From an uncultured Burkholderiales bacterium (lineage in GTDB: Bacteria; Pseudomonadota; Gammaproteobacteria; Burkholderiales; Burkholderiaceae_C), in the NCBI GenBank assembly GCA_903842945.1, contig CAIMNS010000049.1, forward strand, positions 4,759 to 68,758: a stretch of DNA of 64,000 bases, given 5' to 3'. The notes below the pieces were generated by a model. The model made no database searches. It worked only from the letters and a program-made list of their open reading frames with translations, and was not told the DNA's origin. Below are positions 2,355 to 53,625 of the stretch, one piece after another. The position numbers and the translations under genes are program-made. Position 1 is the first letter of the stretch, and every line of letters starts with the position of its first letter.

Positions 2355-2382
2355 GTTTCACCTTAAAGAATAGACGATCATT

Positions 2383-2416
2383 AGCTTAATGGGTACATAT
2401 GAAAGTTACGTGACAT
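2383..2416 (-). promoter_or_regulatory. Pho box promoter for the phoA pair
   Basis: ATGTCAC-GTAA-CTTTCAT (2416-2399), 10 bp, then TAAGCT (2388-2383). Confidence 0.8.
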
Positions 2417-2447
2417 GGGCCGGCTGTTGAAAGTTTTAGCTCAGAAG

Positions 2448-2481
2448 GTGTCATGAAAATGTCATTTGAGCTATTTAAGCT
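2448..2481 (+). promoter_or_regulatory. Pho box promoter for ppk2
   Basis: GTGTCAT-GAAA-ATGTCAT (2448-2465), 10 bp, then TAAGCT (2476-2481). Confidence 0.85.
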
Positions 2482-2514
2482 AAGTGTTGGTTCAATATTT
2501 AGAAGTTCAACACC

Positions 2515-3426
2515 ATGTCTACAAAGCTAAACCTTGATGCGGCACAAATACAGCGACTGAAAGAAGATATCATGGACAGCTTGGACGAAGAGCTTGAAAA
2601 TGAATTTGAAGATGTTGGTTTTGGAGATCCGGAAAGTTTCTCTGCCAAAGCCATTGAATTCAGACGGTTTTATTTTCGCGAGTTGATCAAGCTCCAAGGT
2701 GAACTGGTCAAGTTGCAAGACTGGGTGGTGGCCAACAAGCACAGAATGGTCATTGTTTTTGAAGGCAGAGATGCTGCCGGTAAAGGGGGCGTGATCAAAA
2801 GAATCACGCAACGCTTGAACCCACGCATATGCCGAGTGGCTGCTCTTCCCGCACCCAATGATCGTGAAAAAACACAATGGTATTTTCAGCGCTATGTCTC
2901 CCACCTTCCCGCTGCGGGTGAAATTGTTCTGTTTGACAGAAGCTGGTACAACCGTGCAGGTGTGGAGAAGGTCATGGGTTTTTGCTCCGACGAAGATTAC
3001 GAGGAGTTTTTTAAATCCGCACCAGAGTTTGAAAAAATGCTCACAAGAAGTGGCATTCAAATCATCAAATATTGGTTCTCCATCACAGACGATGAGCAGT
3101 ACTCTAGATTTTTAGGCCGCATCCACGATCCCTTGAAACAGTGGAAACTCAGTCCCATGGATTTGGAGAGCCGTCGTCGCTGGGAGGATTACACCAGAGC
3201 AAAAGAGACGATGATTGAAAGAACACACATCCCAGAAGCGCCTTGGTGGGTGGTTCAAGCGGTCGACAAGAAAAAGGCCAGGCTCAATTGCATCAGTCAC
3301 TTGCTGTCTCAAGTGCAATACTCGGAAATCAACCCACCGGAAATCGTGATGCCAGATCGTGTTCGCAATCCTGACTACATCCGCCACGCCATCCCTCAAG
3401 GCATGATCGTGCCCGAGAAATATTAA
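2515..3426 (+). CDS. ppk2: Polyphosphate kinase 2
   Basis: Walker A FEGRDAAGKGG, FDRSWYNRAGVE, WKLSPMD. Confidence 0.97.
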   Translation: MSTKLNLDAAQIQRLKEDIMDSLDEELENEFEDVGFGDPESFSAKAIEFRRFYFRELIKLQGELVKLQDWVVANKHRMVIVFEGRDAAGKGGVIKRITQRLNPRICRVAALPAPNDREKTQWYFQRYVSHLPAAGEIVLFDRSWYNRAGVEKVMGFCSDEDYEEFFKSAPEFEKMLTRSGIQIIKYWFSITDDEQYSRFLGRIHDPLKQWKLSPMDLESRRRWEDYTRAKETMIERTHIPEAPWWVVQAVDKKKARLNCISHLLSQVQYSEINPPEIVMPDRVRNPDYIRHAIPQGMIVPEKY

Positions 3427-13325: not shown

Positions 13326-13350
13326 TCGCTCCTGAGCGTTTGACGCCTAC

Positions 13351-13395
13351 CCCTCTGTCTGGCCGCAAAAAGTGGCTGGTCAGAGGGTTTTTTTT
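13351..13395 (+). terminator. Intrinsic terminator after ilvC
   Basis: CCCTCTGTCTGGCCGC-AAAAA-GTGGCTGGTCAGAGGG hairpin followed by T8. Confidence 0.8.
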
Positions 13396-13403
13396 GACAT
13401 GCC

Positions 13404-14723
13404 TTAGATGAAAAGCAGCAAAGCAATCATAGCGGCAGACAGACACGTCGACAGTGTTCCGATCAGCAGGGACTTTGCGCCCATTTGAACGATGTCTCTT
13501 TGCCGATCAGGTGCCATGGAACCCATGCCCGCAATGACAATGCCTAGGCTGCCGAAGTTCGCAAAGCCACAAAGCAAATAAGTCATGAGCACTCTGGAGT
13601 GTTCGCTCATGGCATTGGGGTCCAACTTTGAGAGATCCAAATAAGCAATGAACTCGTTCAAGACCAATTTGGTGCCCATCAGTTGTCCTGCGATTTGGGT
13701 GTCCTTCCATTCGATGCCAAGGGTCCATGAAAAGGGTTGCATCACCCAGCCGATCACGCGCTGTATGGTCAAAGCAGAGCCATCCCAAAGGGGCAGCAGT
13801 TGAAGAATGCTGTTGCCAAGAGACACCAAGGCCACCAAAACAATCAACATGGCAATGACACTTGCGAGTAAGCGCATGCCTTGATAGGTGCCATCACTGA
13901 TGGCATCCATCGTGCTTTGGTATTTTCTGTGTTGATCGGTGCTTTCAATCAATGCTGAGATATAAGCCCTCAATCCATGGTTTTGTAATCCATGAGACTC
14001 GGCCTCAGTGGAGGAGCTCTCAGGCGATGGATCTTTTGGAATGGCCACCAAACTCAAAACAATGGCTCCGGGTGCACTGATCAAGGATGCGATGATCAAA
14101 TGGGTGACCACGTGAGGGACAGAGTTTTGCAGAAAACTTGCATAGATGACGAGCACGGTGCCGGAAATGGTTGACATGCCAGTGCTCATGACGACAAACA
14201 ATTCGGACCTGGAGAGCCCACTTAAATAAGGCCTGATCAGCAAAGGTGCTTCAACAATGCCCACAAAAACGGTTGCAATGCTTGCAAAGGACGTGGCGCC
14301 AGACACATTCAAGATCTTTCCCAGCAACCAAGCAAAACAACCAATGAGCACTGGCAAAACGCGCCAGTAATAAAGCAGCGCTGAAAGGGCGCTGAAGATC
14401 AAAATCAAGGGCAGCGCTTGCAATCCAAGGACAAAGGACATGCCTGGAGACTTTTCTTCAAAGGGCAGTGGCCCTCCACCTAAATAGCCAAAGACCAGTG
14501 AGGTACCCGCTTGGGTGGCTTTTTGAAGTTCAAGGACACTTTGGTTCAAGGTGCCCAAGCAACTTTGTATGAAAGGTATTTTCAAGAGCGCCAAAGCCAA
14601 GACAAACTGAAACAAAAGTCCTTTGGCCAAGCTCTTGTAGTCAATGCGCGCGCGGTTTTCAGATACCCCAATGGTGATCAACAAGATCAAAGAGACACCA
14701 ATCAAAGATTGATAATTTTCCAT
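13404..14723 (-). CDS. nupC: Concentrative nucleoside transporter (CNT/NupC family)
   Basis: ALPLILIFSALSALLYY, FVGIVEAPLLIRPYL, GTKLVLNEFIAY, YLLCGFANFGS. Confidence 0.93.
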   Translation of the reverse strand: MENYQSLIGVSLILLITIGVSENRARIDYKSLAKGLLFQFVLALALLKIPFIQSCLGTLNQSVLELQKATQAGTSLVFGYLGGGPLPFEEKSPGMSFVLGLQALPLILIFSALSALLYYWRVLPVLIGCFAWLLGKILNVSGATSFASIATVFVGIVEAPLLIRPYLSGLSRSELFVVMSTGMSTISGTVLVIYASFLQNSVPHVVTHLIIASLISAPGAIVLSLVAIPKDPSPESSSTEAESHGLQNHGLRAYISALIESTDQHRKYQSTMDAISDGTYQGMRLLASVIAMLIVLVALVSLGNSILQLLPLWDGSALTIQRVIGWVMQPFSWTLGIEWKDTQIAGQLMGTKLVLNEFIAYLDLSKLDPNAMSEHSRVLMTYLLCGFANFGSLGIVIAGMGSMAPDRQRDIVQMGAKSLLIGTLSTCLSAAMIALLLFI

Positions 14724-14764
14724 ACACAGACTTTCCAGTGAAACGATTTAAATGGACTGCTCTT

Positions 14765-15805
14765 TCAAGCGCCCAATCGAATCAAATCATCCTCGGTCAA
14801 ATGTTCGGTTTTTTTTCCAATCCAACTGAGCAGTCGAGATTTCCAGTTTAAAAAAGAGCTTGGCGCTTTGACCGCAGTATACTCAAGTCGGCCTCGCGCA
14901 CCGCGCTTGCGCTTGAAGTCACCTGCGCCTGAGCTGTAATTGAGCAGCAGTTGTCGCTCTAGGGTGTAGTTGTAGATAGAGGCAAACAAGAGCCGATAGA
15001 TGCCCGGCCCGGTTGCACTCTCCCAATAACCCAAAGCGGGAACAGTCAAGGTGTCCCCAACTTGGTGCAGCAAAGCAAAGGCCACCATGTCACCTTCCTC
15101 GTTCATCAAGCTCAAGCAAGACATCCATTTGGAGTTGATCATGTCTTTGAAAAAAACAGGTGTGTAATTGGCATTGAAGACACTGTGTTTTTTGATGTAA
15201 ATGAGCTCATACAAGGCTTGCATGCGTTCAGCTTGAAGGTCATCGATCGTGTCTAGAGTTGAGACCTTGAGGTGGGATTTTTTGAGGGCACTTAAATCTC
15301 TTGCGAGGTGTGAAGGTTTGCTTTGCACGCCCATTCGTAGATCGAATTCATAAATGACACGCGCAGGTAATGCAACAAAGCCCATGCCTTGAAGCTCAGT
15401 CAGGAGTGAGCCGTGTTGATGTGACAGTAAATTCCGCACAAACAGATAGCGCTTTAATTTCTTCAGTATCAAAGAACGACTGGCCTCGCATATGGCCGAG
15501 TCTTTGACCGATTCCCATACATTGGTCGATATGGGAAAGTTCCCAACGATGGCGTTTTTACTCATGCCAATCCAATTGGCCAAATGCGACAAGGCCTTGA
15601 GGGACATTTTTAAAATGAAGGGTCCCTGGAGCTCATCGGCCGCATAGTCAAACCAGGCAATTTTGGGTGAAGTGATGTAACAAGCGGGTAAAGGTTTTTG
15701 CTCGCTGGTCACGGTGACAGGCAAGTCGCCTTGCTCCCAATGAAGTTCTGCGCCAGCGTTCAGCATCCACTCTGAGAGTGAATGACCCCAGGGGGCTGGA
15801 CTCAT
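14765..15805 (-). CDS. Uncharacterised GNAT/FemAB-like protein
   Basis: LYELIYIKKHSVFNANYT, TVPALGY..GIYRLL, LNYSSGAGDFKRKRGA..LEY. The fold assignment is by recollection. ATGA-coupled to btaA. Confidence 0.65.
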   Translation of the reverse strand: MSPAPWGHSLSEWMLNAGAELHWEQGDLPVTVTSEQKPLPACYITSPKIAWFDYAADELQGPFILKMSLKALSHLANWIGMSKNAIVGNFPISTNVWESVKDSAICEASRSLILKKLKRYLFVRNLLSHQHGSLLTELQGMGFVALPARVIYEFDLRMGVQSKPSHLARDLSALKKSHLKVSTLDTIDDLQAERMQALYELIYIKKHSVFNANYTPVFFKDMINSKWMSCLSLMNEEGDMVAFALLHQVGDTLTVPALGYWESATGPGIYRLLFASIYNYTLERQLLLNYSSGAGDFKRKRGARGRLEYTAVKAPSSFLNWKSRLLSWIGKKTEHLTEDDLIRLGA

Positions 15806-17046
15806 CGAGGGTTTAATCGATACAAATGCAAGGCACCATAGATTCCTGATCGATCTTGTGGGCCCAAGAGGTCAGAAGTTTGGTGATCTCTGGTCCACAC
15901 ATTGGCCAAGGGGCCTGTCAGGCAAGCATCAACAGGGGAATGGGAGCCGGCCGTCCTAAAGATGACCCTTGCGCCTGGCTTGGCCGCATGGGTAATGGCC
16001 GTCCACACAGCGGTCAGCTCTTGAGGTGTCATCCAGTCCTGAGCGTCCAAAAGGTTCACAATATCAACCGACTCAGGGCCTAACTTGATCAGTTTGTCTC
16101 TGATGTTGTTGTGTTCTATTGAGATTTTATGGATGGACTCGCGAAGGAAAGCGTAATTCTCTTTGACCAAATAAAGGGGCAAAGCGCTTTGACCCGTCTC
16201 ATCGTATTTTCTAGCAAAGGCTTGCCATGCAAAATAGTTGTCCTTGATGGGGACAACCGTTGCCAACTGCCTAGCCCGTTGTTTGAGGATTTCAGACATC
16301 TGTTCTGGTTTGTTGTCACACAAAGCCAGGTGCTGGCTTGGGGGAATCCCAAGGTTGTACAGTGCATAGGGGCTGCTAGCAATTTTGGTCACCAACCTAG
16401 AGTCGAAAATCTTTGCGACCTTTTGATCAAACCACTGCTTTTGATCTTCGACAGTTTTTTGTTCTAAAAGTTCAGACAGCTTGACGCCGTGCAATTTTGC
16501 CCCCATGTGGATGATGCCAATGATTTGACCCAGCAGTCCATATTTGTAAAAGCCTTTGGCAAACATTTGAATCCTCTTGGATCCAAATGGGCCACTTTCC
16601 CAGTAGTCCCGGCTTTCTTGATCGAGTTGAGGGGAGATGATGGCGTTGTAGATTCTGACATTGCTGGTGGACTTGGCGACCCCAAAGAATCTGAAGAAGT
16701 CTTCATGGTACTCTAGCGTCTTGAGAGCCGCAATTTTCAAGTGATTCAAAGCAATGTGCGCGTGGTTCAGGTCCACAACAGAAATCTTTGCGGGATTGGC
16801 CATGAGATAAGACAAAGCGTTACAGCCGCCCGAGGCAATGGTCAGCATGTGGTCGGTGGCTTGGATGTCTAAAGCTTTCATGTCCACAATGGGGTCTTCC
16901 CAAATTTGTGTGTAAACCAGGCGATCGAACCACATGGCGAAAATCTTATCCTTCAAACTTGCTTTGGATTTATGCCCAAAAACAGCGTTCTTCAACAGTA
17001 CTTTTGACTTCTTGAGACTTAGAGTTGGATTTGGAGCTGCGTTCAT
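15802..17046 (-). CDS. btaA: SAM:diacylglycerol 3-amino-3-carboxypropyltransferase BtaA (DUF3419)
   Basis: LVYTQIWEDPIVDMKAL, TIASGGCNALSYL, DLNHAHIAL, NYFAWQAF, LLDAQDWM, RVIFRTAG, DRSGIYG. Start refined to ATG 17046. Confidence 0.92.
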   Translation of the reverse strand: MNAAPNPTLSLKKSKVLLKNAVFGHKSKASLKDKIFAMWFDRLVYTQIWEDPIVDMKALDIQATDHMLTIASGGCNALSYLMANPAKISVVDLNHAHIALNHLKIAALKTLEYHEDFFRFFGVAKSTSNVRIYNAIISPQLDQESRDYWESGPFGSKRIQMFAKGFYKYGLLGQIIGIIHMGAKLHGVKLSELLEQKTVEDQKQWFDQKVAKIFDSRLVTKIASSPYALYNLGIPPSQHLALCDNKPEQMSEILKQRARQLATVVPIKDNYFAWQAFARKYDETGQSALPLYLVKENYAFLRESIHKISIEHNNIRDKLIKLGPESVDIVNLLDAQDWMTPQELTAVWTAITHAAKPGARVIFRTAGSHSPVDACLTGPLANVWTRDHQTSDLLGPQDRSGIYGALHLYRLNPR

Positions 17047-17106
17047 GGTTGAAATAAATCCTTGTGTTTGAAGATATGTGCGCAATTGTGAACCCTTAAT
17101 ATTTCA

Positions 17107-17140
17107 ATTGAATGTTACTTTTATTACTTTTCCGTGACTT
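17107..17140 (-). promoter_or_regulatory. Candidate Pho box promoter for btaA
   Basis: AAGTCAC-GGAA-AAGTAAT (17140-17123), 10 bp, then a weak -10 TTCAAT. Confidence 0.5.
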
Positions 17141-17226
17141 AAAATTTTCAATTTCCATCCATGATGTTTTCTGCAGGGTTGTTGGCCCCTTTGTTTTTGA
17201 TAAAAATACGGGCTTAAAGCTTCGAC

Positions 17227-17260
17227 ATGTCACAAAGTTTTAATGCTCATGGGGTAACAT
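17227..17260 (+). promoter_or_regulatory. Pho box promoter for the TPAT operon
   Basis: ATGTCAC-AAAG-TTTTAAT (17227-17244), 10 bp, then TAACAT (17255-17260). Confidence 0.72.
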
Positions 17261-17284
17261 ATTTGCCAAATATTGGACACATAA

Positions 17285-18184
17285 ATGTCAAATTCTTGGG
17301 TTAAAAAATTCTTTTCTTTTGCTGGCATCGTCATGGCCTCTTTAGCGATATCCGGCTGTGCGATGAACACCTTTGTCATTGATCAAGTGGCCAAGAACTT
17401 GGTGTCAGACGATGACAATGAGCAAGATCTATGGTTGGCACGCGATGCAAGTCCTTTTTACTTGAAGTTGACGGAAAATTTATTGATCCGCTCTCCTGCT
17501 AATTTAAAACTGGCTGAGACCGTTTGCAGTGGTTTTACGCAGTACGCCTACACTTTTATTGCATTTGAAGCGGACAAGCTGGAGGCCAGTGATTACAAAA
17601 GCGCTGAGATCATCAGAGAGCGAGCATCCAAGATGTATGCGCGTGCCTACAAACACGGTATCAAAGCTTTGAACTTGAGCTTCACAGGTTTTGAGGCAAG
17701 GCTGAGGGCGCCAAATTCTACCGATCCTATCGTCTTACCAGTCAGCTCCGTGGGACTGCTGTATTGGTCTGCTGCTTCTTTGGGGGGTTGGATTTCAAGC
17801 GCCAAGGACATGCCCGACTTGGTGGCAGATTTTCCGGTGGCCTTGCGATTGGCCAGTTTGGCATGGAAATTGGATCCCTCCTACTCACAGGGCTCCTTGG
17901 CCAGTTTGATGGGGACTTTTGAGTGGGCCAACCCCAACGGTTCAAAACCCTTGGCAACACACTATTTCGATCTGGCCCTTCAGTACTCAAAAGATCAAAA
18001 CGCAGGTCCCTTTGTGTCAAAGGCAGAACGAGTTGCTGTCGCCATGAAAGACAAGAAGATGTTTGAGCAACTCCTTAGCAAGGCCATCGACATTGCATTG
18101 AAATATCCAAGTTTACAAAATGAGGCCATGCGACTTCGTGCACAATGGTTGCTTGATAACGCACAAGAGTTACTTGAAAGTTGA
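17285..18184 (+). CDS. tatT: TatT lipoprotein, TPR-like TRAP accessory component (TPAT system)
   Basis: Lipobox LAISGC, helical repeat pattern (CSGFTQYAYTF, LLYWSAASLGGWI), directly upstream of dctP and dctQM. Confidence 0.85.
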   Translation: MSNSWVKKFFSFAGIVMASLAISGCAMNTFVIDQVAKNLVSDDDNEQDLWLARDASPFYLKLTENLLIRSPANLKLAETVCSGFTQYAYTFIAFEADKLEASDYKSAEIIRERASKMYARAYKHGIKALNLSFTGFEARLRAPNSTDPIVLPVSSVGLLYWSAASLGGWISSAKDMPDLVADFPVALRLASLAWKLDPSYSQGSLASLMGTFEWANPNGSKPLATHYFDLALQYSKDQNAGPFVSKAERVAVAMKDKKMFEQLLSKAIDIALKYPSLQNEAMRLRAQWLLDNAQELLES

Positions 18185-19203
18185 AGATGAATTTTAGACC
18201 TCTCGCACGAATCTTTTCCTGTTGCCTGCTTCTTACTTGGGGATCGCTCGCCTTTGCGGCGGACAAACCCCTGAGGATAGGGACCTTGGCGCCTAAAAAT
18301 TCTTTGTATTACAGGCAACTCATTGATGTGGCTGAGGCATGGAAGAGCGCCGCGGGAGCCAACTCCAAATACACCGTTTACGCAGACGGCAGTCAAGGCG
18401 GGGAGACAGAGTTGGCCAGAAGAATGCGAATTGGGCAACTTCAAGGAGCACTCTTGTCTGTCGTGGGTTTGAAGGAGATTGAACCGTCCATCAGTGCTTT
18501 GCAATCCATGCCCTTGCTTTTTAGAACTTGGGAAGAGGTCGATTTCGTCAGGGAAAAGTTGCGCCCCGCCATGGAAAAGAAGTTTTTAGAAAAGGGGTTT
18601 GTTGTCCTGGCCTGGGGGGATGCAGGCTGGGTCAGGTTTTTTTCAAAGGAACCTGCCTTCAAACCCGACGACTATAAAAAAATGAAGTTTTTTTCTTGGG
18701 GGGGAGAACCCGAGCAGCAAGAGATCATGAAGAACTTGGGCTATACACCAGTTCCTTTGGAGACCACGGACATTTTGCCCTCCATACAAACAGGCATGAT
18801 TTCTGTGGTGCCTTCGACGCCTTACTTTGCGATGGCCAGTCAAATTTACAACACGGCCAACAACATGCTTGAGATCAACTGGGCGCCTGTGGTTGGGGCC
18901 TTGGTGATCACCAAAAAAGCCTGGGATGAGATGAGCCCTGCAGTCCAAGACGTGGTTCGATCGGCTGGTGAAAAGGCGGGAGACCAAATCAGGATCAAAG
19001 CCCGTTTGGAAGTTGAAGAGGCCGTTGAGGCCATGAAAAAGAGAGGTTTGGTGGTGAACAAGCCAAGCCCCGAGCAAATGAAAGAGTGGAATACTTTGGC
19101 CGCGAACCTCTACCCCAAGATCAGGGGCACGATGGTGCCCGCAGAAACGTTTGATGAAGTGTTCAAACATTTGAATGCATTCAGAGCCGGCAAGCAAAAG
19201 TGA
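18181..19203 (+). CDS. dctP: TRAP substrate-binding protein DctP (TatP type)
   Basis: LRIGTLAPKNS, GSQGGETELARRMRIGQLQG, LAWGDAGWVRFFSK. Confidence 0.92.
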   Translation: MKMNFRPLARIFSCCLLLTWGSLAFAADKPLRIGTLAPKNSLYYRQLIDVAEAWKSAAGANSKYTVYADGSQGGETELARRMRIGQLQGALLSVVGLKEIEPSISALQSMPLLFRTWEEVDFVREKLRPAMEKKFLEKGFVVLAWGDAGWVRFFSKEPAFKPDDYKKMKFFSWGGEPEQQEIMKNLGYTPVPLETTDILPSIQTGMISVVPSTPYFAMASQIYNTANNMLEINWAPVVGALVITKKAWDEMSPAVQDVVRSAGEKAGDQIRIKARLEVEEAVEAMKKRGLVVNKPSPEQMKEWNTLAANLYPKIRGTMVPAETFDEVFKHLNAFRAGKQK

Positions 19204-20996
19204 AGTTGAATCCCTTCAAACTGGATGAATTGATTTCATCCCTTGCTTTGCTGTTGATGGCCATCATCCCCGTCGTTGAAATCCTTGCCCGCCCCATTTT
19301 TGGTAAAGGCATTGAGAACGCTCCCATCTTGGTTCAGCACTTTGGTCTGGTCATGTCGATGTTTGGTGCCATAGCGGCCTATCGATTTGGACATCTTTCA
19401 AGCATTGGTGTGATTTTTTACTCTTTTCAGGTCCCAGCGCGTCTTTTGTCGAGTTTAATTTGTGGCCTCTTGTGCTGGGCTTGTTGGCATTTTGTGAGCA
19501 CAGAAAGGTCGGCCCATCAAATGCTGGCTTACTCGATTCCAATTTGGATTTTTCAGTTGGTGATGCCTGTTGGGTTTTTGCTTTTGAGTTGGCAAATCAT
19601 CACGCAAGGTTTGCAATCAAACCTGCCGAAGGCGATGTCTATTCTAGGCATGACGGCCGTCAGTTATTTGCTCTTTCAGTATCTTGAGTCGAATGCAGGG
19701 TCCATGGGGTCCATGGGGTTTGTGTTGGTTGTTTTGGTGGTGATGTTTTTAGGTGGGGCACCTATCTTCTCCATCATTGCAGCCTTGGCCTTGGGCTTGT
19801 TTTGGCAAGAGGGTTTGCCATTGTCTTCGGTGGCCCTGTCACATTACCAAATCACCGTCAATGCTTCATTGCCCGCATTGCCCTTGTTCACCCTGGCGGG
19901 CTTGGTCTTTGCGTCCACGGGGTCAGCCAAGCGTTTGGGCCAAGTTTTCATGGCCATGTTTGGCACGGGCGTGAGGGGAACGGTCTTTGCAGCGACCGTT
20001 TTGTGCTCATTTTTTACGGCTTTTACCGGAGGCAGTGGCGTGACCATTTTGGCGCTTGGGGGTCTGTTGCTTCAATTGTTAAGTGACACGGGCTATTCCA
20101 AAAAAAGGGGGATCAGTCTGGTAACCAGTGCCAGCGCACTTGGCGTTTTGCTGGCACCTTCTGTGCCATTGATCATGTATGCGATCATTGCTCGCGTTCC
20201 GATCAATGCCATGTTTTTGGCTGGTATCGTGCCTGCGGTGGTCATGGTTTTGTCTTTATTGGTCTTTGGTGGCTATTTGAAGCAGGACAATCTAGTTGCT
20301 TCAAATGAGCATGTGCATGTTTTTTCTTGGTTGAAATTAAGGCATGCGTTGTGGGATGCCAAATGGGAGATTTTCACGCCCTTTGTTGCCATTGGCTCTT
20401 TGGTCAGTGGATTTGCAACCCCGACAGAGAGCGCTGCGATCACGGCTGTTTATGCCCTTGTCACGCAAATGATCTTTAACCAAGAGTTGAGCGTGGATCA
20501 ATTCAAGCAGTCCTTGCTCAAGTGCACACAAATCATTGGAGGCGTGATGCTGGTGCTTGGCATGGCCCTTGGGATGACCAATTACTTGATCGATGCAGGA
20601 ATTCCTGACCTGGCCATCCAATGGGTTCAAAGCATCACCAGCAACAGGTACGTTTTTTTATTGGCCCTCAATGTATTTTTATTTTTTGCTGGGGCCCTCA
20701 TGGAAATCTATGCGGCCATTGTGGTGTTGGTGCCTTTGTTGTTGCCTTTGGCCATGTCCTATGACATTCATCCCATTCATTTCGGGATCATCTTTTTGGC
20801 CAACATGGAGATGGGATTTTTATGTCCACCTGCCGGCATGAATATCTATTTTGCCTCAGCGGTCTTTAACCAGCCCTTGAAGGAGGTGGCCATCTCTATT
20901 TGGCCTGCATTGATCGCAATTTTTGTTGGCACTGTGATCATCTCGTGGCTTCCCATACTCACGATTGCCTTGCCTGAGTTTTTTCACATGGTCTAA
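19200..20996 (+). CDS. dctM: TRAP fused small/large permease DctQM
   Basis: About 600 aa polytopic protein. LPALPLFTLAG, TAFTGGSGVTILALG, PTESAA, HPIHFGIIFLANME.GFLCPPAGMN. Confidence 0.93.
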   Translation: MKLNPFKLDELISSLALLLMAIIPVVEILARPIFGKGIENAPILVQHFGLVMSMFGAIAAYRFGHLSSIGVIFYSFQVPARLLSSLICGLLCWACWHFVSTERSAHQMLAYSIPIWIFQLVMPVGFLLLSWQIITQGLQSNLPKAMSILGMTAVSYLLFQYLESNAGSMGSMGFVLVVLVVMFLGGAPIFSIIAALALGLFWQEGLPLSSVALSHYQITVNASLPALPLFTLAGLVFASTGSAKRLGQVFMAMFGTGVRGTVFAATVLCSFFTAFTGGSGVTILALGGLLLQLLSDTGYSKKRGISLVTSASALGVLLAPSVPLIMYAIIARVPINAMFLAGIVPAVVMVLSLLVFGGYLKQDNLVASNEHVHVFSWLKLRHALWDAKWEIFTPFVAIGSLVSGFATPTESAAITAVYALVTQMIFNQELSVDQFKQSLLKCTQIIGGVMLVLGMALGMTNYLIDAGIPDLAIQWVQSITSNRYVFLLALNVFLFFAGALMEIYAAIVVLVPLLLPLAMSYDIHPIHFGIIFLANMEMGFLCPPAGMNIYFASAVFNQPLKEVAISIWPALIAIFVGTVIISWLPILTIALPEFFHMV

Positions 20997-21005
20997 CGAT
21001 AACCA

Positions 21006-22256
21006 ATGGCCTTAAAAATGATCAACCGTCTTTCTTTTCAACACGCCTTCCTTGTCTTTGTCCTTCACTGCCTTTGTGCATTGACCCTCAACAGCTTTGC
21101 TCAAAGCAACGCGCCAAAAAAGCCATTGGTCCTTCTCCTTGGGATCGATGGTTTTAAGCCAAGTTATTTGAATTTAGGCGTCTCACCGAATTTGAATTCT
21201 CTGGTATCAACTGGGGTCCTTGCAAAAGGATCTATCTCTGCCTTCCCGTCCTTGACTTTTCCAAATTTTGTGAGTTTGGTCACAGGCCTCACCCCCGATC
21301 ACCATGGTATTGTGAACAACACCATGACCGATCCGACAACAGATCAGCTCTTTACCTTGGGTTCAAGAGAGGCCGTTGAGAACCCTTTTTGGTGGACGCA
21401 AACCACACCGATTTGGAACAATGTAAGGCAACAAGGCGGGATTGCTTCTGCCATGTTTTGGCCCGGTTCTGAAGTTGAAATCAACGGTGGGCGGCCCAAC
21501 GATTGGGTCAGGTATGAGCATGGCATGTCTCACGACAAGAGACTTGAGCACTTGTTGACATGGTTGTCTAGAGGTGAGTCTTCAAGACCCCATTTCGCCA
21601 CACTGTACCTCTCCGATGTGGACTCTGCTGGGCATGAGTTTGGACCCGATAGCGAACAGGTCAAACAAGCAGTCGCTAAAGTAGATCAGACCCTAGGGAA
21701 ATTGCTGCAAGCACTTTCTAGCTTGGGTTTAAGAGAAAAAACCACCCTGGTGATCGTTTCTGATCACGGCATGGCCAACACGCCTTTGGATAAATCCCTT
21801 GATGTCAGTCAGTGGCTCAAAGATTTCCCTAAAGCCAAGTGGGAGTGGCAAGGTGCCACTTCAGCTGTCAGACTCCATGGTGAAAATGCAGCTCAAGTTC
21901 TCCAGACCTTGTCTCTTCAGTCCCATCTGCAATGCCATGAAAAAAGCAACTTGCCCGAGCGCTATAAGTTTGGACGGCATCCAAGAATTCCTGAAATTGT
22001 TTGTGTGTCTGACATGGGCTACACCGTCACGGCCAATCCCAGTCGAAAAGGACCCCTGGGTCAGCACGGGTTTGACCCCTTTTTGCCTGAAATGCATGGA
22101 CTCTTTTTGGCCTCGGGTTTTCGCATCCAACCTGGTGAATTGGGTTTGATTGAAAACATCGAGGTGTACCCGCTGTTGTGTCAATTGCTGGGTATTGTTG
22201 AGCAAAAAAATGATGCAAGGCATCTTTTGAAAGAGATCGTTTTGAATCCATCGTGA
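21006..22256 (+). CDS. Nucleotide pyrophosphatase/phosphodiesterase (NPP, alkaline phosphatase superfamily), secreted
   Basis: GIDGF, FPSLTFPNFVSLVTG (Thr nucleophile), DSAGHEFGP, VSDHGM, GQHGFD. Sec signal. Confidence 0.92.
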   Translation: MALKMINRLSFQHAFLVFVLHCLCALTLNSFAQSNAPKKPLVLLLGIDGFKPSYLNLGVSPNLNSLVSTGVLAKGSISAFPSLTFPNFVSLVTGLTPDHHGIVNNTMTDPTTDQLFTLGSREAVENPFWWTQTTPIWNNVRQQGGIASAMFWPGSEVEINGGRPNDWVRYEHGMSHDKRLEHLLTWLSRGESSRPHFATLYLSDVDSAGHEFGPDSEQVKQAVAKVDQTLGKLLQALSSLGLREKTTLVIVSDHGMANTPLDKSLDVSQWLKDFPKAKWEWQGATSAVRLHGENAAQVLQTLSLQSHLQCHEKSNLPERYKFGRHPRIPEIVCVSDMGYTVTANPSRKGPLGQHGFDPFLPEMHGLFLASGFRIQPGELGLIENIEVYPLLCQLLGIVEQKNDARHLLKEIVLNPS

Positions 22257-22272
22257 AGTCAAGGATGGATTT

Positions 22273-22299
22273 AAAAAGGCACCAAATCGGTGCCTTTTT
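22273..22299. terminator. Bidirectional intrinsic terminator after the NPP gene
   Basis: Perfect inverted repeat AAAAAGGCACC-AAATC-GGTGCCTTTTT. Confidence 0.85.
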
Positions 22300-22410
22300 A
22301 AATTGTGAAATGTAAATCAAAACCATTGAATCCAAAAGTAATATGAAATGATCGAATTGGATTGTCGCTCTATTGAAACGTTCATGTTTCGGGCCAAGGG
22401 TTATCCATGT

Positions 22411-22444
22411 CTGTCACAAGAATGTAACCAAGTTTTAGCACAAT
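22411..22444 (+). promoter_or_regulatory. Pho box promoter for the exbD-tonB-TBDR-exbB operon
   Basis: CTGTCAC-AAGA-ATGTAAC (22411-22428), 10 bp, then CACAAT (22439-22444). Confidence 0.78.
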
Positions 22445-22450
22445 ACTTCC

Positions 22451-22903
22451 ATGCGAAGATTCCCTCAACAAGCTAGGAAAAAGTCACGAATAGAAATCAT
22501 CCCAATGATCGATGTGATGATGTTTTTGTTGGTTTTTTTTGTACTGATCAGCATCAACGTGATACCTGCTTTGGGCATCAAGATGAACTTGCCCAGTGCC
22601 AACTCGGTCAAAGAAGAACACCCACCCGTTCGGGTCATCTTGGGCATAGGTTCTGATGGTACTTACCAACTCGAAGGACAAACATTTGCCTCTCTTGAAG
22701 GTTTGAAGGCTTCTTTGTTGGCGATCAAAAACCAAAATGAAGCCAAATCCAACAACATTACATCAAGGCCCTCCAGCGCTCGCTTGGCGGTCATCATCAA
22801 CGGCGATGAACTATCTCCCTTGCAGCGATTGGTCGATGTGATGGACATGCTCAAGTCCAATGGGATTGATTCCATGACCATTGCGGCAAAGAAAAAGCAG
22901 TAA
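22451..22903 (+). CDS. exbD: Biopolymer transport protein ExbD
   Basis: IEIIPMIDVMMFLLVFF TM motif, INGD...QRLVDVMD. Confidence 0.93.
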   Translation: MRRFPQQARKKSRIEIIPMIDVMMFLLVFFVLISINVIPALGIKMNLPSANSVKEEHPPVRVILGIGSDGTYQLEGQTFASLEGLKASLLAIKNQNEAKSNNITSRPSSARLAVIINGDELSPLQRLVDVMDMLKSNGIDSMTIAAKKKQ

Positions 22904-22905
22904 AA

Positions 22906-23610
22906 ATGAGTGCCGCTCTTGCTTGGACTTATGAAAAAAGAGATCCCATCTCTTATGCCAGCGCCTTTTTTTTTGGTGTGTTGATTTTATGGTTGATTCA
23001 ATTCTCAGCCCTCGAATTGTCCCGAAACAATGAGCTTGAAATGACCGCCTTCATCGAGTCGCCCCCAGCGCCTGAAATCATCAAGCCTCAAGAGCCTGTG
23101 AAGAAGGTGATTGAAAAGCAAGAGATGCTCAAAAAGCCAGAGATGGTCATGCCAAAGCAGGTGACATCGCCGTTTGCAACAGAAGCGCCAAGGGAGGTGA
23201 AGCAAGCTGAGGCCCCATTGCCGATCGAAAAACCTCAAGTGCATCAAGCACCGCCCCCAGTTGCACTCCCCGCACAAGCGCCAGCTTCAGCGCCAGCGGC
23301 ATCCTCTGTCGCCAGTATTTATGAAGCTCAACTAAGAGCTTACTTGGAAAAAATCAAGCGCTATCCCACCAGCCGTGAAGCCAGGCTCACCAGGCCACAA
23401 GGTGCGGTGCGTGTGTGGTTGGAAATCTCCAGAAGCGGGCAGGTTTTGGGTGTGGGTGTGATGAGCTCATCGGGTTCGAATTTATTGGATGGAGAGGCTT
23501 TGAAAACTTTGAAGAATGGTTTTTATCCTGCTTTTCCTGATGAGGCCTATGTGGGTGAAAGCGCACACAAGTTTTCTGCGACCCTCAGCTACACGCTGGA
23601 GGCGCAATAG
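22906..23610 (+). CDS. tonB: Energy transducer TonB
   Basis: N-terminal TM, Pro-rich linker, KRYPTSREA..QGAVRV..SSGSNLLDGEAL C-terminal domain. Confidence 0.88.
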   Translation: MSAALAWTYEKRDPISYASAFFFGVLILWLIQFSALELSRNNELEMTAFIESPPAPEIIKPQEPVKKVIEKQEMLKKPEMVMPKQVTSPFATEAPREVKQAEAPLPIEKPQVHQAPPPVALPAQAPASAPAASSVASIYEAQLRAYLEKIKRYPTSREARLTRPQGAVRVWLEISRSGQVLGVGVMSSSGSNLLDGEALKTLKNGFYPAFPDEAYVGESAHKFSATLSYTLEAQ

Positions 23611-23671
23611 TTTTTTTGTTAGTTTTTGTTGGATTCAATTAGTTTTTGTTAATTATTTTTAGGAGAAAAAA

Positions 23672-26065
23672 ATGAAGAAGTCGAATCGTGTCTTTCAGCT
23701 GTCCTTGTTGAGCATTGCTCTTTTGGGCACCGGTTATTTTTCATCCGCTTTGGCACAAAAGGCACCTACCGATGTGGGTACAGTCAAAATCACGGGTGAA
23801 GGCGATGCTTTAGGCAATGGACTTTTGATTGATGAAGACAGTGTGAAAACAAAAAGCACAGTCACCAAAGCGATGATTGACAAAGAGCGTCCAACAGCAA
23901 ATGCTTTCCAAGTTTTGAATTTGATGCCCAGTGTCAATGCTTCTAGCTACGATGCGACAGGACTTTTTGGCGGTAATTTAAGGGTCAGAGGTTTTGACAG
24001 CTCCCAGATGGGTTTCACCATCAATGGAGCTCCTGTGAACGACTCTGGTAACTTTGCGATTTATCCACAAGAGTATTCTGATATTGAAAACATGTGTGAA
24101 GTCTTCATCACCCAGGGATCTGTGGATACAGATGCTCCTCATGTGGGCGCCTCAGGGGGTAACGTTGGTATGGTCAGTTGCTCACCCAAAGACACCTTTG
24201 GTGGCAGATTCACGGGCTCTTTGGGGGACTTGAATTTCAAGCGTTCGTTTTTACGCTTGGATACAGGTTTGATTGGCAAGGAACATCCTTTCAAAGCTTT
24301 TGTATCTTACTCAGCCGCTCAAGTCGACAAGTTCAAAGGACTCGGTGCGGCGAACCGTCATCACATCGATGTCGGTATGGATTGGAAACTGACCGACAAC
24401 ACAACATTGACATCCAACTTGCTGTATAACTTTGCAGTCAACAGCAATTTTTTGACTTTGACCAAAGGGGAGAATGCTCAAAATTCATCGCTTGACTTCA
24501 GCTCATCTGTGCCGCAACACTTGGCTTCTGGCAATGAGAACACCACGGCCAATTTTGGTACGAGCAGCGCTGGTGCAGTGCCAAGAGCCAAGTTGGCCTA
24601 CTATGGTTACTCTTTGAATCCCTTTGAGAACTATCTTTTCACATCGCGTTTGCAAACTCGAATCGATGACAAATTGACCTTGAGTGCAGAGCCTTACTTT
24701 TGGTACGGTTATGGCACCGGTGGTACCCAACAAACAACTCTTGCTGAGTCCAGCACAGGATTTCGCGGAGGTATTGCTGACATCAACAAAAATGGCAACA
24801 CCACGGACACCGTGGGCATCTACCGTGGAAGTGTGACCCAGACGAACCGTCCTGGTATCACGTTCAAAGCCAATTACGATTTAGGTGATCACAAGATCCT
24901 AGCTGGACTGTGGATGGAGCAAGCCCGCCACCGTCAAACTCAACCCGCTACCACCTTGGACAACAACGGGACCATTTCTGATTTGTGGTTGAGAAACAAT
25001 TTGTTGCGTTACAACGATGGCAGTTTGTATGAAGGTAGAAACTACAAAACTGTCTCCACCGGTTATTCCTTGTTCTTACAAGACACCATTTCCATGGGTC
25101 GTTTGGACATCATTCCCGGTGTGAGATTCTCTTCTATCAAGCGTGACTTCACCAACTATGCATCTAGTGGCTCGGGTTTGGGCGCAGATTATTCTGCTGA
25201 CAAAACCTATGCCAAGCCTTTGGTTTCTTTAGGTGCTCGTTACAAAATCGACGACGCTTTGCAAGCTTATGCCAATGTTTCTCAAAACATGCGCGCACCG
25301 TCTAACTTCGTTTTGTCAAGCTGGGTCACCGGTGGCACTTATGCCAATGGCGCTTTGACTGGGTATAAGCTAGTTCCCAACAACTCCATTCAAGCTGAGA
25401 CCTCGGTCGCCACTGAAGCCGGACTGCGCATCACAGAAGGTGACATCAAGGGTTCTATCTCCTTGTTCCAAGTCAACTTCAAAAATCGTCTTGCTTCTGG
25501 TTTCAATCCCGATACAGCCACTTACACTGACTACAACGTTGGCGACTCGACCATCAAGGGTTTAGAGTTGCAAATGGGATCCAAGCCAGTCAACGGCTGG
25601 AGTGTGTTTGGTTCTGCAACGTACACACAAAGTAAAATCTTAAACAACTTCCCCGCAACTGCAACCAGCACACTGCCAACGTCTGGCTCGATGTTCCCAG
25701 ATACACCTGAGTGGATGTACGGTGCTTCAGTTCAATACGCTTCAGGTCCTTATCTCGCGTCCTTGTCTGGCAAATACACGGGCAAGCGCTTCACAACACT
25801 TGTCAACGATGAGTTCTTGGATGCCTATACCGTTTTTGACTTGAATGCAGGATATCGCTTTGAAAATGGCACTTTCTTTAAGAGCCCCACCGTGCGTTTG
25901 AACGTGAGCAACTTGTTCAACAAGAACTATTTGATTGCCAACTCTGGAAGTGGTTCAAACATCACCACCTCGACAACGGCACCAAGTTCACAAGGCGGTG
26001 GTTTTCCCAGCTATTACGTTGGAGCCCCGAGGTTTGTCAGCATGTCATTTGGCACTGATTTCTAA
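23672..26065 (+). CDS. TonB-dependent outer membrane receptor
   Basis: Signal peptide, TonB-box-like DVGTVKI, plug LRVRGF...TINGAPVND, NVSNLFNKNY, terminal Phe. AGGAG RBS. Confidence 0.93.
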   Translation: MKKSNRVFQLSLLSIALLGTGYFSSALAQKAPTDVGTVKITGEGDALGNGLLIDEDSVKTKSTVTKAMIDKERPTANAFQVLNLMPSVNASSYDATGLFGGNLRVRGFDSSQMGFTINGAPVNDSGNFAIYPQEYSDIENMCEVFITQGSVDTDAPHVGASGGNVGMVSCSPKDTFGGRFTGSLGDLNFKRSFLRLDTGLIGKEHPFKAFVSYSAAQVDKFKGLGAANRHHIDVGMDWKLTDNTTLTSNLLYNFAVNSNFLTLTKGENAQNSSLDFSSSVPQHLASGNENTTANFGTSSAGAVPRAKLAYYGYSLNPFENYLFTSRLQTRIDDKLTLSAEPYFWYGYGTGGTQQTTLAESSTGFRGGIADINKNGNTTDTVGIYRGSVTQTNRPGITFKANYDLGDHKILAGLWMEQARHRQTQPATTLDNNGTISDLWLRNNLLRYNDGSLYEGRNYKTVSTGYSLFLQDTISMGRLDIIPGVRFSSIKRDFTNYASSGSGLGADYSADKTYAKPLVSLGARYKIDDALQAYANVSQNMRAPSNFVLSSWVTGGTYANGALTGYKLVPNNSIQAETSVATEAGLRITEGDIKGSISLFQVNFKNRLASGFNPDTATYTDYNVGDSTIKGLELQMGSKPVNGWSVFGSATYTQSKILNNFPATATSTLPTSGSMFPDTPEWMYGASVQYASGPYLASLSGKYTGKRFTTLVNDEFLDAYTVFDLNAGYRFENGTFFKSPTVRLNVSNLFNKNYLIANSGSGSNITTSTTAPSSQGGGFPSYYVGAPRFVSMSFGTDF

Positions 26066-26071
26066 ACCTAC

Positions 26072-26632
26072 ATGACTGAGTTTTTACACCAAGCTTCGTT
26101 TGGGTTGATGATCATCTCTGCCATCATTGCAACTGTGGTGAGCGTAGAGAGGATCATCTTCTCCAGTATGAATTTAAAGCGGGCCAAGCAGTTGACGCTC
26201 TGCGTTGAGTCGCAAAAGGGCTCTGTTAGCACTTTGTTAGGAAAAGATGTTGTGTCTGAGATGGTTCAAAAAATCCTTGATGACAAAGCTCAAAATTTTC
26301 CTGAGTCCGTTCAACATGACCGAGCTGATGCAGCGTTCATTCACGCCAAAGATGAATTGGGTGCCAGGCTTTGGATACTTGACACGATCGTCACTGCCGC
26401 GCCCTTGATGGGCCTCTTGGGGACCATTTTCGGTATCGTGGATACTTTTTTGGCCTTGTCTAAATCTGGTATGTCTGACCCTGCAGGTGTGAGTGCAGGC
26501 ATTGGAACGGCTCTTTACGCGACGGCACTTGGAATTTCAATTGCCTTGATTGGTCTTTTCGCATTCAACTTTTTGAGTGTTCGCAATGAGAGGATAGGGG
26601 AGCATTTGAAGATGCTGATTTTGCGACTCTAG
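26072..26632 (+). CDS. exbB: ExbB (MotA/TolQ/ExbB proton channel)
   Basis: LDTIVTAAPLMGLLGTIFGI, GIGTALYATALG. Confidence 0.92.
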   Translation: MTEFLHQASFGLMIISAIIATVVSVERIIFSSMNLKRAKQLTLCVESQKGSVSTLLGKDVVSEMVQKILDDKAQNFPESVQHDRADAAFIHAKDELGARLWILDTIVTAAPLMGLLGTIFGIVDTFLALSKSGMSDPAGVSAGIGTALYATALGISIALIGLFAFNFLSVRNERIGEHLKMLILRL

Positions 26633-26657
26633 ACCTTTCTATGTTTTGATCCGTCCC

Positions 26658-26699
26658 GCCGTTAACTGCCAGCGTGATCCAGTTAACGGCTTCTTTTTT
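26658..26699 (+). terminator. Intrinsic terminator after exbB
   Basis: GCCGTTAACTG...CAGTTAACGGC 11-bp stem followed by TTCTTTTTT. Confidence 0.8.
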
Positions 26700-26790
26700 G
26701 GCGTGTTCCATCATCTCGCTACAGCCGGGCATGTATTTTTTGGCGCTTGATCCATCAATGAGCTTGCCTTGTGGGTCGATTTGCTTATCC

Positions 26791-26803
26791 TAAGTGTTTG
26801 ATT
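26791..26803. promoter_or_regulatory. IHF consensus site upstream of psd
   Basis: TAAGTGTTTGATT is the reverse complement of WATCAANNNNTTR. Confidence 0.5.
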
Positions 26804-26894
26804 TCATTTAAAAAAAACTCATTTCTAGGGGTGAATAGAAAAGCACCTTGTGACCATTACAATCAAAGTCATTCAGATTTAACAAAGGTGCCCC

Positions 26895-44013: not shown

Positions 44014-44562
44014 TCAATTCAAAGATTCAGCAATTTTTCTGTAGTGGCTCAAAGGCGGTGTTTGGACATGAGGTACTTTGGCCAAATCGTCATAGCGTCT
44101 GAGTCGAACGGCATCTTGAGCAAAAGGCTGCTGAATATAAATTTGTGCTGCCTTGCTTGAGAAAACGCCACCTTGAAGCTCTAAGGTGTGCTTTGAGGTG
44201 GGAGACAAGGCCTCCCAATAAGAGGGATCCTCAAAACAAAGATAGCGTTTGGCATCGACGTGCAACCTGATGGGAGCAAGGACGTCTTCTGGGAAAAGGG
44301 GGCGTAAAAATGGCAAAGCAATGTATTGATGCAAGTCGTCTTGGTGCTTTGAGGCCTCCTGGTCTTGAGAAAACTCTTGGGTGATCAAGTGTCCTATGTC
44401 ATGCAAAAGTGATGCTGTGATCATTTGCGGTGTTTCATGGGCTGTTTCTGCCAAGTGAGCACATTGAAGGGCATGTTGAAGTTGGCTGATCGCCTCTCCC
44501 GAGTACTGCGAATCGCCCTTGAACACGAGAAGGTCAATGATCTCTGTGACGGTCATTTTCAT
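44014..44562 (-). CDS. PhnZ-like HD-domain diiron phosphonate oxygenase
   Basis: YSGEAISQLQHALQC, LLHDIGH, LH, HVDAKRYL, RRYDDLAK. Confidence 0.85.
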   Translation of the reverse strand: MKMTVTEIIDLLVFKGDSQYSGEAISQLQHALQCAHLAETAHETPQMITASLLHDIGHLITQEFSQDQEASKHQDDLHQYIALPFLRPLFPEDVLAPIRLHVDAKRYLCFEDPSYWEALSPTSKHTLELQGGVFSSKAAQIYIQQPFAQDAVRLRRYDDLAKVPHVQTPPLSHYRKIAESLN

Positions 44563-44573
44563 GGATGGGCTCT

Positions 44574-45344
44574 TTAGATGAGGGCTTTGCGAATTTTGGA
44601 AGAAACGATGTCAATCACACTCACCGTGATCACCACAATGATCATCACGGCTGAGGTCTCTTTGTATTGAAAACTTCGAATGATTTCCCACAGCAAGACG
44701 CCAATGCCACCTGCGCCAACCATACCCACCACGGTTGCAGAACGCACATTGGATTCAAAGCGATAAAGCGTGAAGGAGATCCACAAGGGCATGACTTGAG
44801 GTATCACGCCATAGATGATTTCGTGCAATGCGCCTGCGCCTGTTGAACGAATGCCTTCAATGGGTTGGTGATCAATGGCCTCTACTGCTTCAGAAAAAAG
44901 TTTGGCCAAAATACCCGTGGTATGGATCCAAAGTGCCAAGACCCCTGCAAAGGGCCCTAAGCCAACAGCCACCACAAAAAGCATGGCAAAAACCATCTCG
45001 TTGATGGCGCGAAAAGAATCCATGAGACGTCGAACGGGTTGATGAATCCACCAAGGTACGATATTGGAGGAAGCCAGCAAACCAAATGGCACTGCAGTCA
45101 GCACCGCTAAAAAGGTGCCCCAAAGTGCAATCTCTAGAGTCACCAACATCTCTTCAAAGTAGAGTTTCCAGTGATTGAAGTTAGGCGGGAAAAACTCTGT
45201 GGCGTAGGACTTCATGTTGTCCGAATCCCGCCACAAGTCCATGGGACGCATGTCCGCACCGTTCCAAGATGCCACGAGCATCAAGATCAACAAGCCCCAA
45301 GCAAATTGCAAGAAAAGGCTTCGTTTGGGCTCTGGCGTAGACAT
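44574..45344 (-). CDS. phnE: Phosphonate ABC transporter permease
   Basis: [39 protein letters not shown]. Confidence 0.96.
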
Positions 45345-45358
45345 GCGTTTAAAAAAAC

Positions 45359-46303: not shown

Positions 46304-46323
46304 AAAAGACTCCATAAAAGACA

Positions 46324-47175: not shown

Positions 47176-47252
47176 TGGAAATCGTGCAATTTGACCCAGT
47201 TTGACAATACTTTGTGTCAGCTTCTTTACAAACCTCAAATTTGAAGCGCTTT

Positions 47253-53024: not shown

Positions 53025-53031
53025 GTCTGTA

Positions 53032-53600: not shown

Positions 53601-53625
53601 ATGGATTTTAAGCAAGCTTCATAAC

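Follow-up and report, generated by a model that had tools for sequence, protein, structure and literature searches.

The subject of this analysis is a predicted phosphate-regulated transporter operon, tatT-tatP-dctQM-npp, carried by contig CAIMNS010000049.1 of an uncultured Burkholderiales bacterium, of which one stretch of 64,000 nucleotides, referred to below as the window, was analysed. The four genes run head to tail on the plus strand (17285-22256). The first, tatT (17285-18184), encodes a tetratricopeptide repeat (TPR)-like T component predicted to be a lipoprotein (PF16811, E 1.4e-45), and it is followed by tatP (18181-19203), for a DctP-family periplasmic binding protein (PF03480; NF037995 at 261 bits), and by dctQM (19200-20996), for the fused small and large membrane subunits of a transporter of the tripartite ATP-independent periplasmic (TRAP) type (PF04290 and PF06808; TIGR00786 at 286 bits, above its cut-off). 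The last gene, npp (21006-22256), encodes a secreted nucleotide pyrophosphatase/phosphodiesterase (NPP; PF01663, E 3.8e-82, 277 bits against a cut-off of 23). A PF16811 gene that adjoins co-oriented DctP-type and DctQ/DctM genes is the arrangement of a TRAP transporter associated with a TPR protein (TPAT), and open reading frame calls together with Pfam and NCBIfam matches confirm the original prediction of a TPAT operon ending in a predicted secreted NPP, in its coordinates as well as its families.

At the tatT/tatP junction, gTTGAagATG, the two genes share a 4-nt TTGA overlap, which presupposes a TTG start for tatP; an ATG at 18187, 2 nt past the tatT stop, could serve equally well as the start. 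Between tatP and dctQM there is likewise a 4-nt overlap (GTGA), and the dctQM stop codon (TAA, 20994-20996) is followed, after 9 nt, by the npp ATG at 21006, so that the overlaps and the 9-bp gap described earlier stand, the first of them subject to the TTG start, and the operon shows translational coupling. Downstream of npp, an intrinsic terminator is predicted on the plus strand at 22268-22304, with its GC core and T run at 22278-22299. Its hairpin, AAAAAGGCACC-AAATC-GGTGCCTTTTT (22273-22299), folds at -21.6 kcal/mol (z = -5.85), none of 200 shuffled sequences folds as well, and the pairing is kept in close relatives via compensatory changes such as AAGCACC/GGTGCTT and GCGCAC/GTGCGC. A GC-rich hairpin, a U run and compensatory conservation are all present, in agreement with the terminator that had been proposed at this position. 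A simple consensus terminator scan of the region missed the 22273-22299 hairpin because A/U pairs extend its stem through the T run.

The operon is one of three transcription units in a block of about 13 kb between ilvC and psd. The other two are a minus-strand unit (17085 down to 13404) with a DUF3419 gene, a weakly FemAB/GNAT-like gene and a NupC-like gene, and a plus-strand unit, exbD-tonB-TBDR-exbB (22451-26632), which by Pfam encodes an outer-membrane uptake module with a TonB-dependent receptor (TBDR). The terminator separates the tatT operon from the exbD operon, each of which has its own predicted Pho promoter.

Predicted PhoB control of the operon

Upstream of tatT, a Pho box is predicted on the plus strand (17228-17244, TGTCAC-aaagt-TTTAAT) from a position weight matrix (PWM) obtained de novo and from conservation. 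Written as ATGTCAC-AAAG-TTTTAAT (17227-17244), it has a first half-site that is good and a second that is weak. The motif was learned without a seed, by Gibbs sampling of the regions upstream of tatT in other genomes (66 after dereplication), and it replaced a first PWM that had been picked with the E. coli consensus and was partly circular, with the same result. The sampler returned TGTCAC-N5-tTTCACA (in short, TGTCAC-N5-TTTCAC) on the coding strand of about 60 of the 66 regions. This is the classic direct-repeat pair with an 11-bp period, and it is common to tatT promoters across freshwater Burkholderiales and Rhodocyclales. Independently of this matrix, an E. coli-consensus scan upstream of tatT in 86 related loci found sites with at most 4 mismatches in the 14 core positions in 57% of them, against 17% of random segments.

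In a scan of both strands of the window (about 128,000 positions; mean score -27, standard deviation 9.7), the de novo PWM gave the tatT box 17.1 bits and the fifth rank. The eight best sites are all intergenic, and precede phoA (2396), phnG (53580), a secreted-protein gene (63471), DUF3419 (17120), tatT (17228), psd (26867), ppk2 (2449) and exbD (22412). The box of the divergent DUF3419 (BtaA-like) operon lies on the minus strand at 17120-17139 (17.9 bits, rank 4), and that before exbD on the plus strand at 22411-22428 (CTGTCAC-aaga-ATGTAAC; 14.0 bits, rank 8). The tatT, DUF3419 and exbD boxes are conserved in relatives, in contrast to the drifting spacers around them, and the tatT box is kept in six of six close relatives. 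The site before psd (26867-26886, 16.7 bits) is treated as a chance match, since its first half-site is not conserved in relatives.

Ten nucleotides after the tatT Pho box lies a -10-like hexamer, TAACAT (17255-17260, plus strand), which reads TAAYAT in relatives, is part of a conserved block, GGTAAYAT, and probably belongs to the promoter. The layout is that of a PhoB-dependent promoter, with two 7-bp direct repeats at an 11-bp period, the second of them degenerate, about 10 bp before a -10 hexamer. PhoB-activated promoters typically lack a -35 element, and it is therefore expected that a sigma-70 consensus scan of the region found no promoter. Between the hexamer and the tatT start, the 5' untranslated region (5'-UTR) contains a conserved block, CCAAATATTGG (17266-17276, plus strand), within TTTGCCAAATATTGG (17261-17276); the block does not vary among seven aligned relatives, unlike the remainder of the spacer. 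TTTGCCAAATATTGG includes the inverted repeat CCAA-ATA-TTGG and might act as a further regulatory site or as an element of the mRNA.

The unassigned role of this block, the weak second half-site and the empty sigma-70 scan would all suit an explanation by plain clustering, according to which the Pho box is a chance match and the operon is constitutive or answers to another signal, for instance via the 5'-UTR block. This is highly improbable, given that the motif emerges de novo from most orthologous promoters, singles out, within the window, phoA, phnG and ppk2 and marks a site that is conserved in relatives where its flanking spacer is not, and that the missing -35 element is typical of PhoB-activated promoters in general. 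The match of the predicted tatT box exceeds chance, and Pho control of the operon, as originally proposed, is well supported by motif rank and conservation; altogether, the window appears to contain at least six predicted Pho promoters.

TatT, TatP and the ligand of the transporter

According to the sorting rule of E. coli lipoproteins, Ala rather than Asp at position +2 directs the protein to the outer membrane. TatT has a lipobox, LAISG-C25, as read from its sequence, with a Cys25 that is nearly invariant in the TatT alignment and an Ala, not an Asp, at position +2, because of which an outer-membrane location is predicted; the lipoprotein character is that expected of a TPAT T component. TatT matches Tp0956 of Treponema pallidum (E 5.5e-12) and, weakly and in its C-terminal half, the palmitate-bound TatT of Enhygromyxa salina (PDB 8G52, E 1.4e-5). 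Both of these T components bind long-chain fatty acids, as summarised in PMC11713862 from Zhai et al. 2023 (PDB 8G52), and by that summary the earlier statement that TPAT substrates are largely unknown is outdated.

TatP carries an ordinary signal peptide, as judged from its sequence, and its best match in the PDB is Tp0957. In TRAP binding proteins, a carboxylate clamp is formed by an arginine, Arg-147 in SiaP numbering, which is replaced by Ala in the hydrophobic pocket of Tp0957, and the commonest substitution among Arg-less DctP members is Phe (PMC4646407). Phe171 of TatP aligns with the carboxylate-binding arginine of 4p1e, 4pfr and 4n15 and with the Ala of Tp0957, and Phe occupies the Arg-147 position in 73 of 73 TatP orthologues. 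TatP is thus a TPAT-type binding protein devoid of the clamp. Since the arginine is missing, a small carboxylate, the ligand that would have spoken against the original prediction, is unlikely for TatP as far as its sequence indicates. A hydrophobic or amphipathic ligand is a reasonable expectation from the same residues, and to this extent the amphipathic phosphodiester originally suggested holds; its phosphodiester part was derived from the linkage to the NPP, which is specific to one lineage (four of 80 loci, see below).

The absence of the arginine would also be compatible with import by the TPAT of a small head-group product that contains neither phosphorus nor a carboxylate, for example ethanolamine or a choline-like amine, freed outside the cytoplasm by the NPP or by phosphatases; TatP would then be comparable to the Arg-less TRAP binding proteins Csal_0678 and EtoX. 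Arg-less DctP proteins can bind ethanolamine (PMC4646407; PMC10132767), and the Phe at the Arg position is precisely their commonest substitution. Such an amine is nevertheless quite improbable as the ligand: the closest solved relative of TatP, Tp0957, has a hydrophobic pocket, and the ethanolamine binder is missing from the top matches; a partner with a lipid pore such as TatT would be superfluous for a small polar molecule; and control by nitrogen or carbon would be more natural for it than Pho control.

The NPP as a predicted nucleotide-type enzyme

The NPP begins with a signal peptide, read from its sequence, and is 40% identical to the Xanthomonas axonopodis NPP (PDB 2GSN, Xac NPP) over 362 residues (E 1.9e-80). 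In phmmer comparisons it scores 274 bits with Xac NPP, 197-218 bits with ENPP1, ENPP4, ENPP3 and ENPP5, and about 150 bits with the lipid- and choline-specific ENPP2, ENPP6 and ENPP7. The equivalents of Xac NPP D54, T90, N111, D210, H214, D257, H258 and H363 are all identical in the alignment; these residues reportedly play the catalytic and metal-binding parts in that enzyme. The protein therefore combines a PF01663 match above threshold with the Thr nucleophile, the Asn and the six ligands of two zinc ions that characterise the NPP/ENPP enzymes. The base-stacking aromatic pair (equivalents of F91 and Y174) is kept too, within the conserved LTF and vrY motifs. With this pair and its closer similarity to Xac NPP and ENPP1/3/4/5 than to ENPP2/6/7, the protein falls by sequence into the nucleotide-specific subgroup, and is classified as a nucleotide-type enzyme and not as one of the lipid/choline type. 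In autotaxin, the lipid pocket is created by the loss of certain loops. The NPP aligns to Xac NPP with only short gaps, which implies that it retains these loops.

Genomic neighbourhoods of TPATs and NPPs

Related TPAT loci were collected by a species-dereplicated genome scan with the TatT alignment, and the best 80 of 392 relatives were compared; loci are cited by L numbers where they have to be told apart. The order T-P-QM is kept in all 80, as far as the contigs allow a view. At least one phosphate or lipid-remodelling gene is found within 7 kb in 26 of the 76 loci outside the lineage of the window. These neighbours include OlsA-like and OlsB-like genes, an LpxH-like metallophosphoesterase, a GT4 glycolipid-synthase-like gene, DUF3419/BtaA-like genes, PPK2 and PhoB, and also the lysophospholipid flippase LplT (448 bits, above its cut-off). 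In a Limnohabitans-like clade the order is PhoB ... CorA-like, ppk2, a divergent tatT-tatP-dctQM and OlsA-like, followed by divergent OlsB-like, the LpxH-like metallophosphoesterase (possibly of the PlcP type), GT4 and LplT. Downstream of the TPAT, LplT and GT4 also occur in other lineages, in varied arrangements, with LplT in one locus (L084) lying 67 bp after dctQM on the same strand, and a DUF3419/GNAT-like pair occurs near the TPAT in two loci (L018, L021) as well as in the lineage of the window. Three routes to phosphorus-free lipids (betaine-, ornithine- and glycolipid-like) and a lysophospholipid flippase thus recur beside TPATs, a neighbourhood signal that is suggestive, not conclusive. 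In the window itself, a search for homologues of LplT, OlsA/B, PlcP-like and GT4 proteins found none of them; only the CorA-like gene is present.

An NPP gene follows dctQM in four of the 80 loci, all of the lineage of the window (TatT at least 68% identical, ilvC...psd setting). None was found near the other 76 within up to 10 kb a side, 45 of these having more than 3 kb downstream of dctQM. The 76 belong to Limnohabitans, Rhodoferax, other Comamonadaceae, Azonexus, Dechloromonas and a Gallionellales metagenome-assembled genome (MAG), with TatP 68-81% identical. By inspection of their sequences, the genes immediately downstream of dctQM in other lineages are housekeeping ones (ApbA-like, DnaJ-like, DAHP synthase, DapD-like, SixA-like), and the TPAT has no universal enzyme partner. 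Among the loci compared, the tatT-tatP-dctQM-npp operon is the arrangement of a single lineage.

Seen from the side of the enzyme, 77 NPP loci (38-61% identity) were assembled from look-ups and a metagenome scan. The ExbD/TonB/TBDR/ExbB module adjoins the NPP in 20 of them, in divergent, upstream and downstream arrangements, and a TPAT does so in six, four of which are convergent while in two a divergent TPAT (TatT about 30% identical) is followed by PhoD and then by the NPP. A divergent PhoA-type phosphatase accompanies the NPP at 5/77 loci and PhoX at 3/77. Orthologues of the TBDR of the window (58-65% identical) stay beside the NPP through rearrangements (L009, L114, L145). Because adjacency is found in 20 versus six of the 77 loci, these comparisons suggest that the durable partner of the NPP is the TonB-dependent uptake module and not the TPAT.

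Adjacency of TPAT and NPP nonetheless arose at least three times, as the operon of the window, as the convergent arrangement (L090, L115-117, L121) and as TPAT-PhoD-NPP (L091, L123, L153). The TPAT of L091 and L153 represents a second, divergent subfamily (TatT about 30% identical, at 2191-3057 in L091; TatP 58%), situated within a phosphorus-acquisition island of phosphonate-ABC, PhoD-NPP, PhoX and ugp-like genes in which PhoD and NPP abut without a gap.

These three independent arrangements are among the grounds for the model of the original prediction, in which TPAT and NPP have a single amphipathic phosphodiester as their substrate, a lysophospholipid for example, whose head-group phosphate the NPP would remove or expose and whose lipid, or the intact diester, the TPAT would import. 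The single transcript with its 9-bp gap, the recurrence of LplT by TPATs (in L084 downstream on the same strand), the binding of fatty acyl chains by members of the TatT family and a TatP without the carboxylate arginine are all compatible with it. A shared substrate is still rather unlikely, as 76 of the 80 TPAT loci are without an NPP within the range covered, the NPP lies beside the TBDR module about three times as often as beside a TPAT, its sequence is nearest to nucleotide-type enzymes and keeps the loops whose loss gives the autotaxin pocket, and hydrophilic glycerophosphodiesters would need no TatT. The proximity of TPAT and NPP fits two members of one regulon that drift together in phosphorus-acquisition islands.

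A proposed phosphate-starvation operon with two co-regulated functions

The reading preferred here, to which a probability of roughly one half is given, is that of a PhoB-controlled, lipid-handling TPAT that shares its transcript with a nucleotide phosphodiesterase serving the adjacent TonB-dependent module. The locus would be a phosphate-starvation operon, activated by PhoB, inside a cluster of Pho-regulon genes. TatT would hand a hydrophobic or amphipathic lipid-derived ligand, such as a fatty acyl chain or a lysolipid-like molecule, to the soluble TatP, from which the fused DctQM permease would import it, and the TPAT would in this way serve the turnover or scavenging of envelope lipids that accompanies the replacement of phospholipids by phosphorus-free lipids. 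The periplasmic NPP, for its part, would act on what the adjacent, Pho-regulated TonB-dependent receptor delivers, cleaving diesters or nucleotides linked by pyrophosphate; from the resulting monoesters PhoA would then free phosphate, and the NupC-like carrier could import the nucleosides. In the lineage of the window, the NPP gene would have come to close the TPAT transcript as a result of shared regulation, and a common substrate is not needed to explain its position. It is the comparison with relatives that suggests that TPAT and NPP are co-regulated neighbours and not two steps on one substrate.

Several points weigh against this reading. The second half-site of the tatT Pho box is weak, and many TPAT orthologues have housekeeping genes around them. 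The lipid genes beside TPATs belong in several cases to the one Limnohabitans-like clade, which makes the counts phylogenetically non-independent. The repeated origin of TPAT-NPP adjacency could reflect a real functional link. We know of no natural substrate established for the Xanthomonas NPP itself. Finally, a search for the sequence of the window in RNA runs gave no match, and the matches in DNA runs come only from lake and freshwater metagenomes.

A wider proposal, doubtful at present, is that the phosphate-starvation response of freshwater betaproteobacteria has its missing lipid importers in the TPATs, which under PhoB control would recover lysolipids or acyl chains derived from phospholipids, either of the cell's own outer membrane or of membranes outside it, for the synthesis of phosphorus-free lipids. 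In the lineage of the window, the co-transcribed NPP and the TonB receptor would round this off to a pathway across three compartments, in which diesters that are amphipathic or linked to nucleotides lose their phosphorus.

Other Pho-linked genes and the setting of the block

In the divergent minus-strand operon, whose synteny is kept in relatives, the weakly FemAB/GNAT-like gene overlaps the DUF3419 gene by 4 nt (Pfam, NCBIfam). DUF3419 is the BtaA family, and the BtaA of R. sphaeroides matches it (PMC6642084). No BtaB methyltransferase is present in this operon (13404-17139), the product of which could be a phosphorus-free lipid other than diacylglyceryl-trimethylhomoserine (DGTS). The chemistry of BtaA releases methylthioadenosine, and this might explain the nucleoside carrier in the operon.

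The exbD-tonB-TBDR-exbB module is found beside the NPP in L004, L009, L093, L106-L114, L127, L143-L148 and L158-L161, and loci with NPP and TBDR module sometimes also have a Phytase-like (PF13449) gene. Together with the NPP, the module looks like a conserved unit for the uptake and processing of organic phosphorus.

The window is dense in predicted Pho-regulon genes (882-3426, 44014-54893, 55512-56822). The genes phoA and ppk2 diverge from one another, and a Pho box precedes each of them (2396-2415 and 2449-2468, respectively). The phnGHIJ... operon, for carbon-phosphorus lyase, has the second-best Pho box of the window (53580-53599) and faces DUF1045 and PhnN-like genes. Orthologues of the CorA-like gene of the window lie beside ppk2 and the TPAT in the Limnohabitans loci. 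A further box (63471-63490, 20.6 bits) stands about 110 nt before an open reading frame with a signal peptide (start 63602), which runs off the end of the window and has been assigned to no family.

The window as a whole is a segment of a betaproteobacterial chromosome with ilvBHC, psd-pssA-leuA and DUF3106, DUF3619 and sigma-E-type genes, and the records nearest to it are freshwater 'Burkholderiales' and 'Betaproteobacteria' MAGs. The nupC-to-exbB block sits between ilvC and psd (13326-26894), which are presumably neighbours in other Burkholderiales. Recent horizontal transfer of the block is rejected, as there is no compositional signal for it: GC content is uniform (0.45-0.52) from ilvC to leuA. 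On account of this uniformity, the block, if it is an insertion, is an old one.

Comparison with known systems

The physiological role of TPATs has been open since 2012, and so far only the binding of fatty acids by two T components has been shown. In the literature searched, no paper linking a TPAT to the Pho regulon was found; the near-universal predicted Pho box of tatT in freshwater Burkholderiales and Rhodocyclales is a result of the present analysis. Taken with the recurrent lipid genes and LplT in the neighbourhood, it leads to the proposal that TPATs may be part of a lipid economy of phosphate starvation. The persistent pairing of NPP and TBDR points to the periplasmic processing of organic phosphorus imported via TonB-dependent receptors in phosphorus-limited lakes.

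The gene sets described for lipid remodelling under phosphorus starvation are PlcP-Agt, OlsB/OlsA and BtaA/BtaB (PMC4796936). These pathways include no transporter of the TRAP or TPAT type, whereas the TPAT orthologues compared here neighbour their genes. Of these sets, the window has only the BtaA-like gene, with the weakly FemAB/GNAT-like partner in place of BtaB. In Caulobacter crescentus, the genes induced together when phosphate runs short include those for TBDRs, a nucleotide pyrophosphatase, a phytase and phosphatases as well as genes of lipid remodelling (PMC11208175). This PhoB regulon is the same mix of genes as that of the window and related loci, although no TPAT is reported there, and the NPP and the TBDR module are here physically linked across many lineages.

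Regarding the single components, the NPP of the window shares with the Xanthomonas axonopodis enzyme (PDB 2GSN) its single-domain secreted architecture and its catalytic, metal-binding and Phe/Tyr residues. The TatT of Enhygromyxa salina (PDB 8G52) is of the same Pfam family as that of the window but very divergent, and its genomic partners differ; by analogy, the match supports a fatty-acyl ligand for the T component. The best solved relatives of both TatT and TatP are those of the Treponema pallidum TPAT (Tp0956, Tp0957 and TatQM; Deka et al. 2012, Brautigam et al. 2012), with only distant similarity (E about 1e-12 and about 1e-20, respectively). The two systems have the same order of T component, DctP-type protein and fused QM, a lipoprotein TatT and a binding protein without the carboxylate-binding arginine. 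They differ in that the TatP of the window has a signal peptide and no lipobox, unlike its treponemal counterpart, and Phe instead of the Ala of Tp0957 at the arginine position. In addition, and again unlike the Treponema system, the operon of the window is predicted to be controlled by a Pho box, carries an extra enzyme gene and belongs to a free-living freshwater betaproteobacterium.

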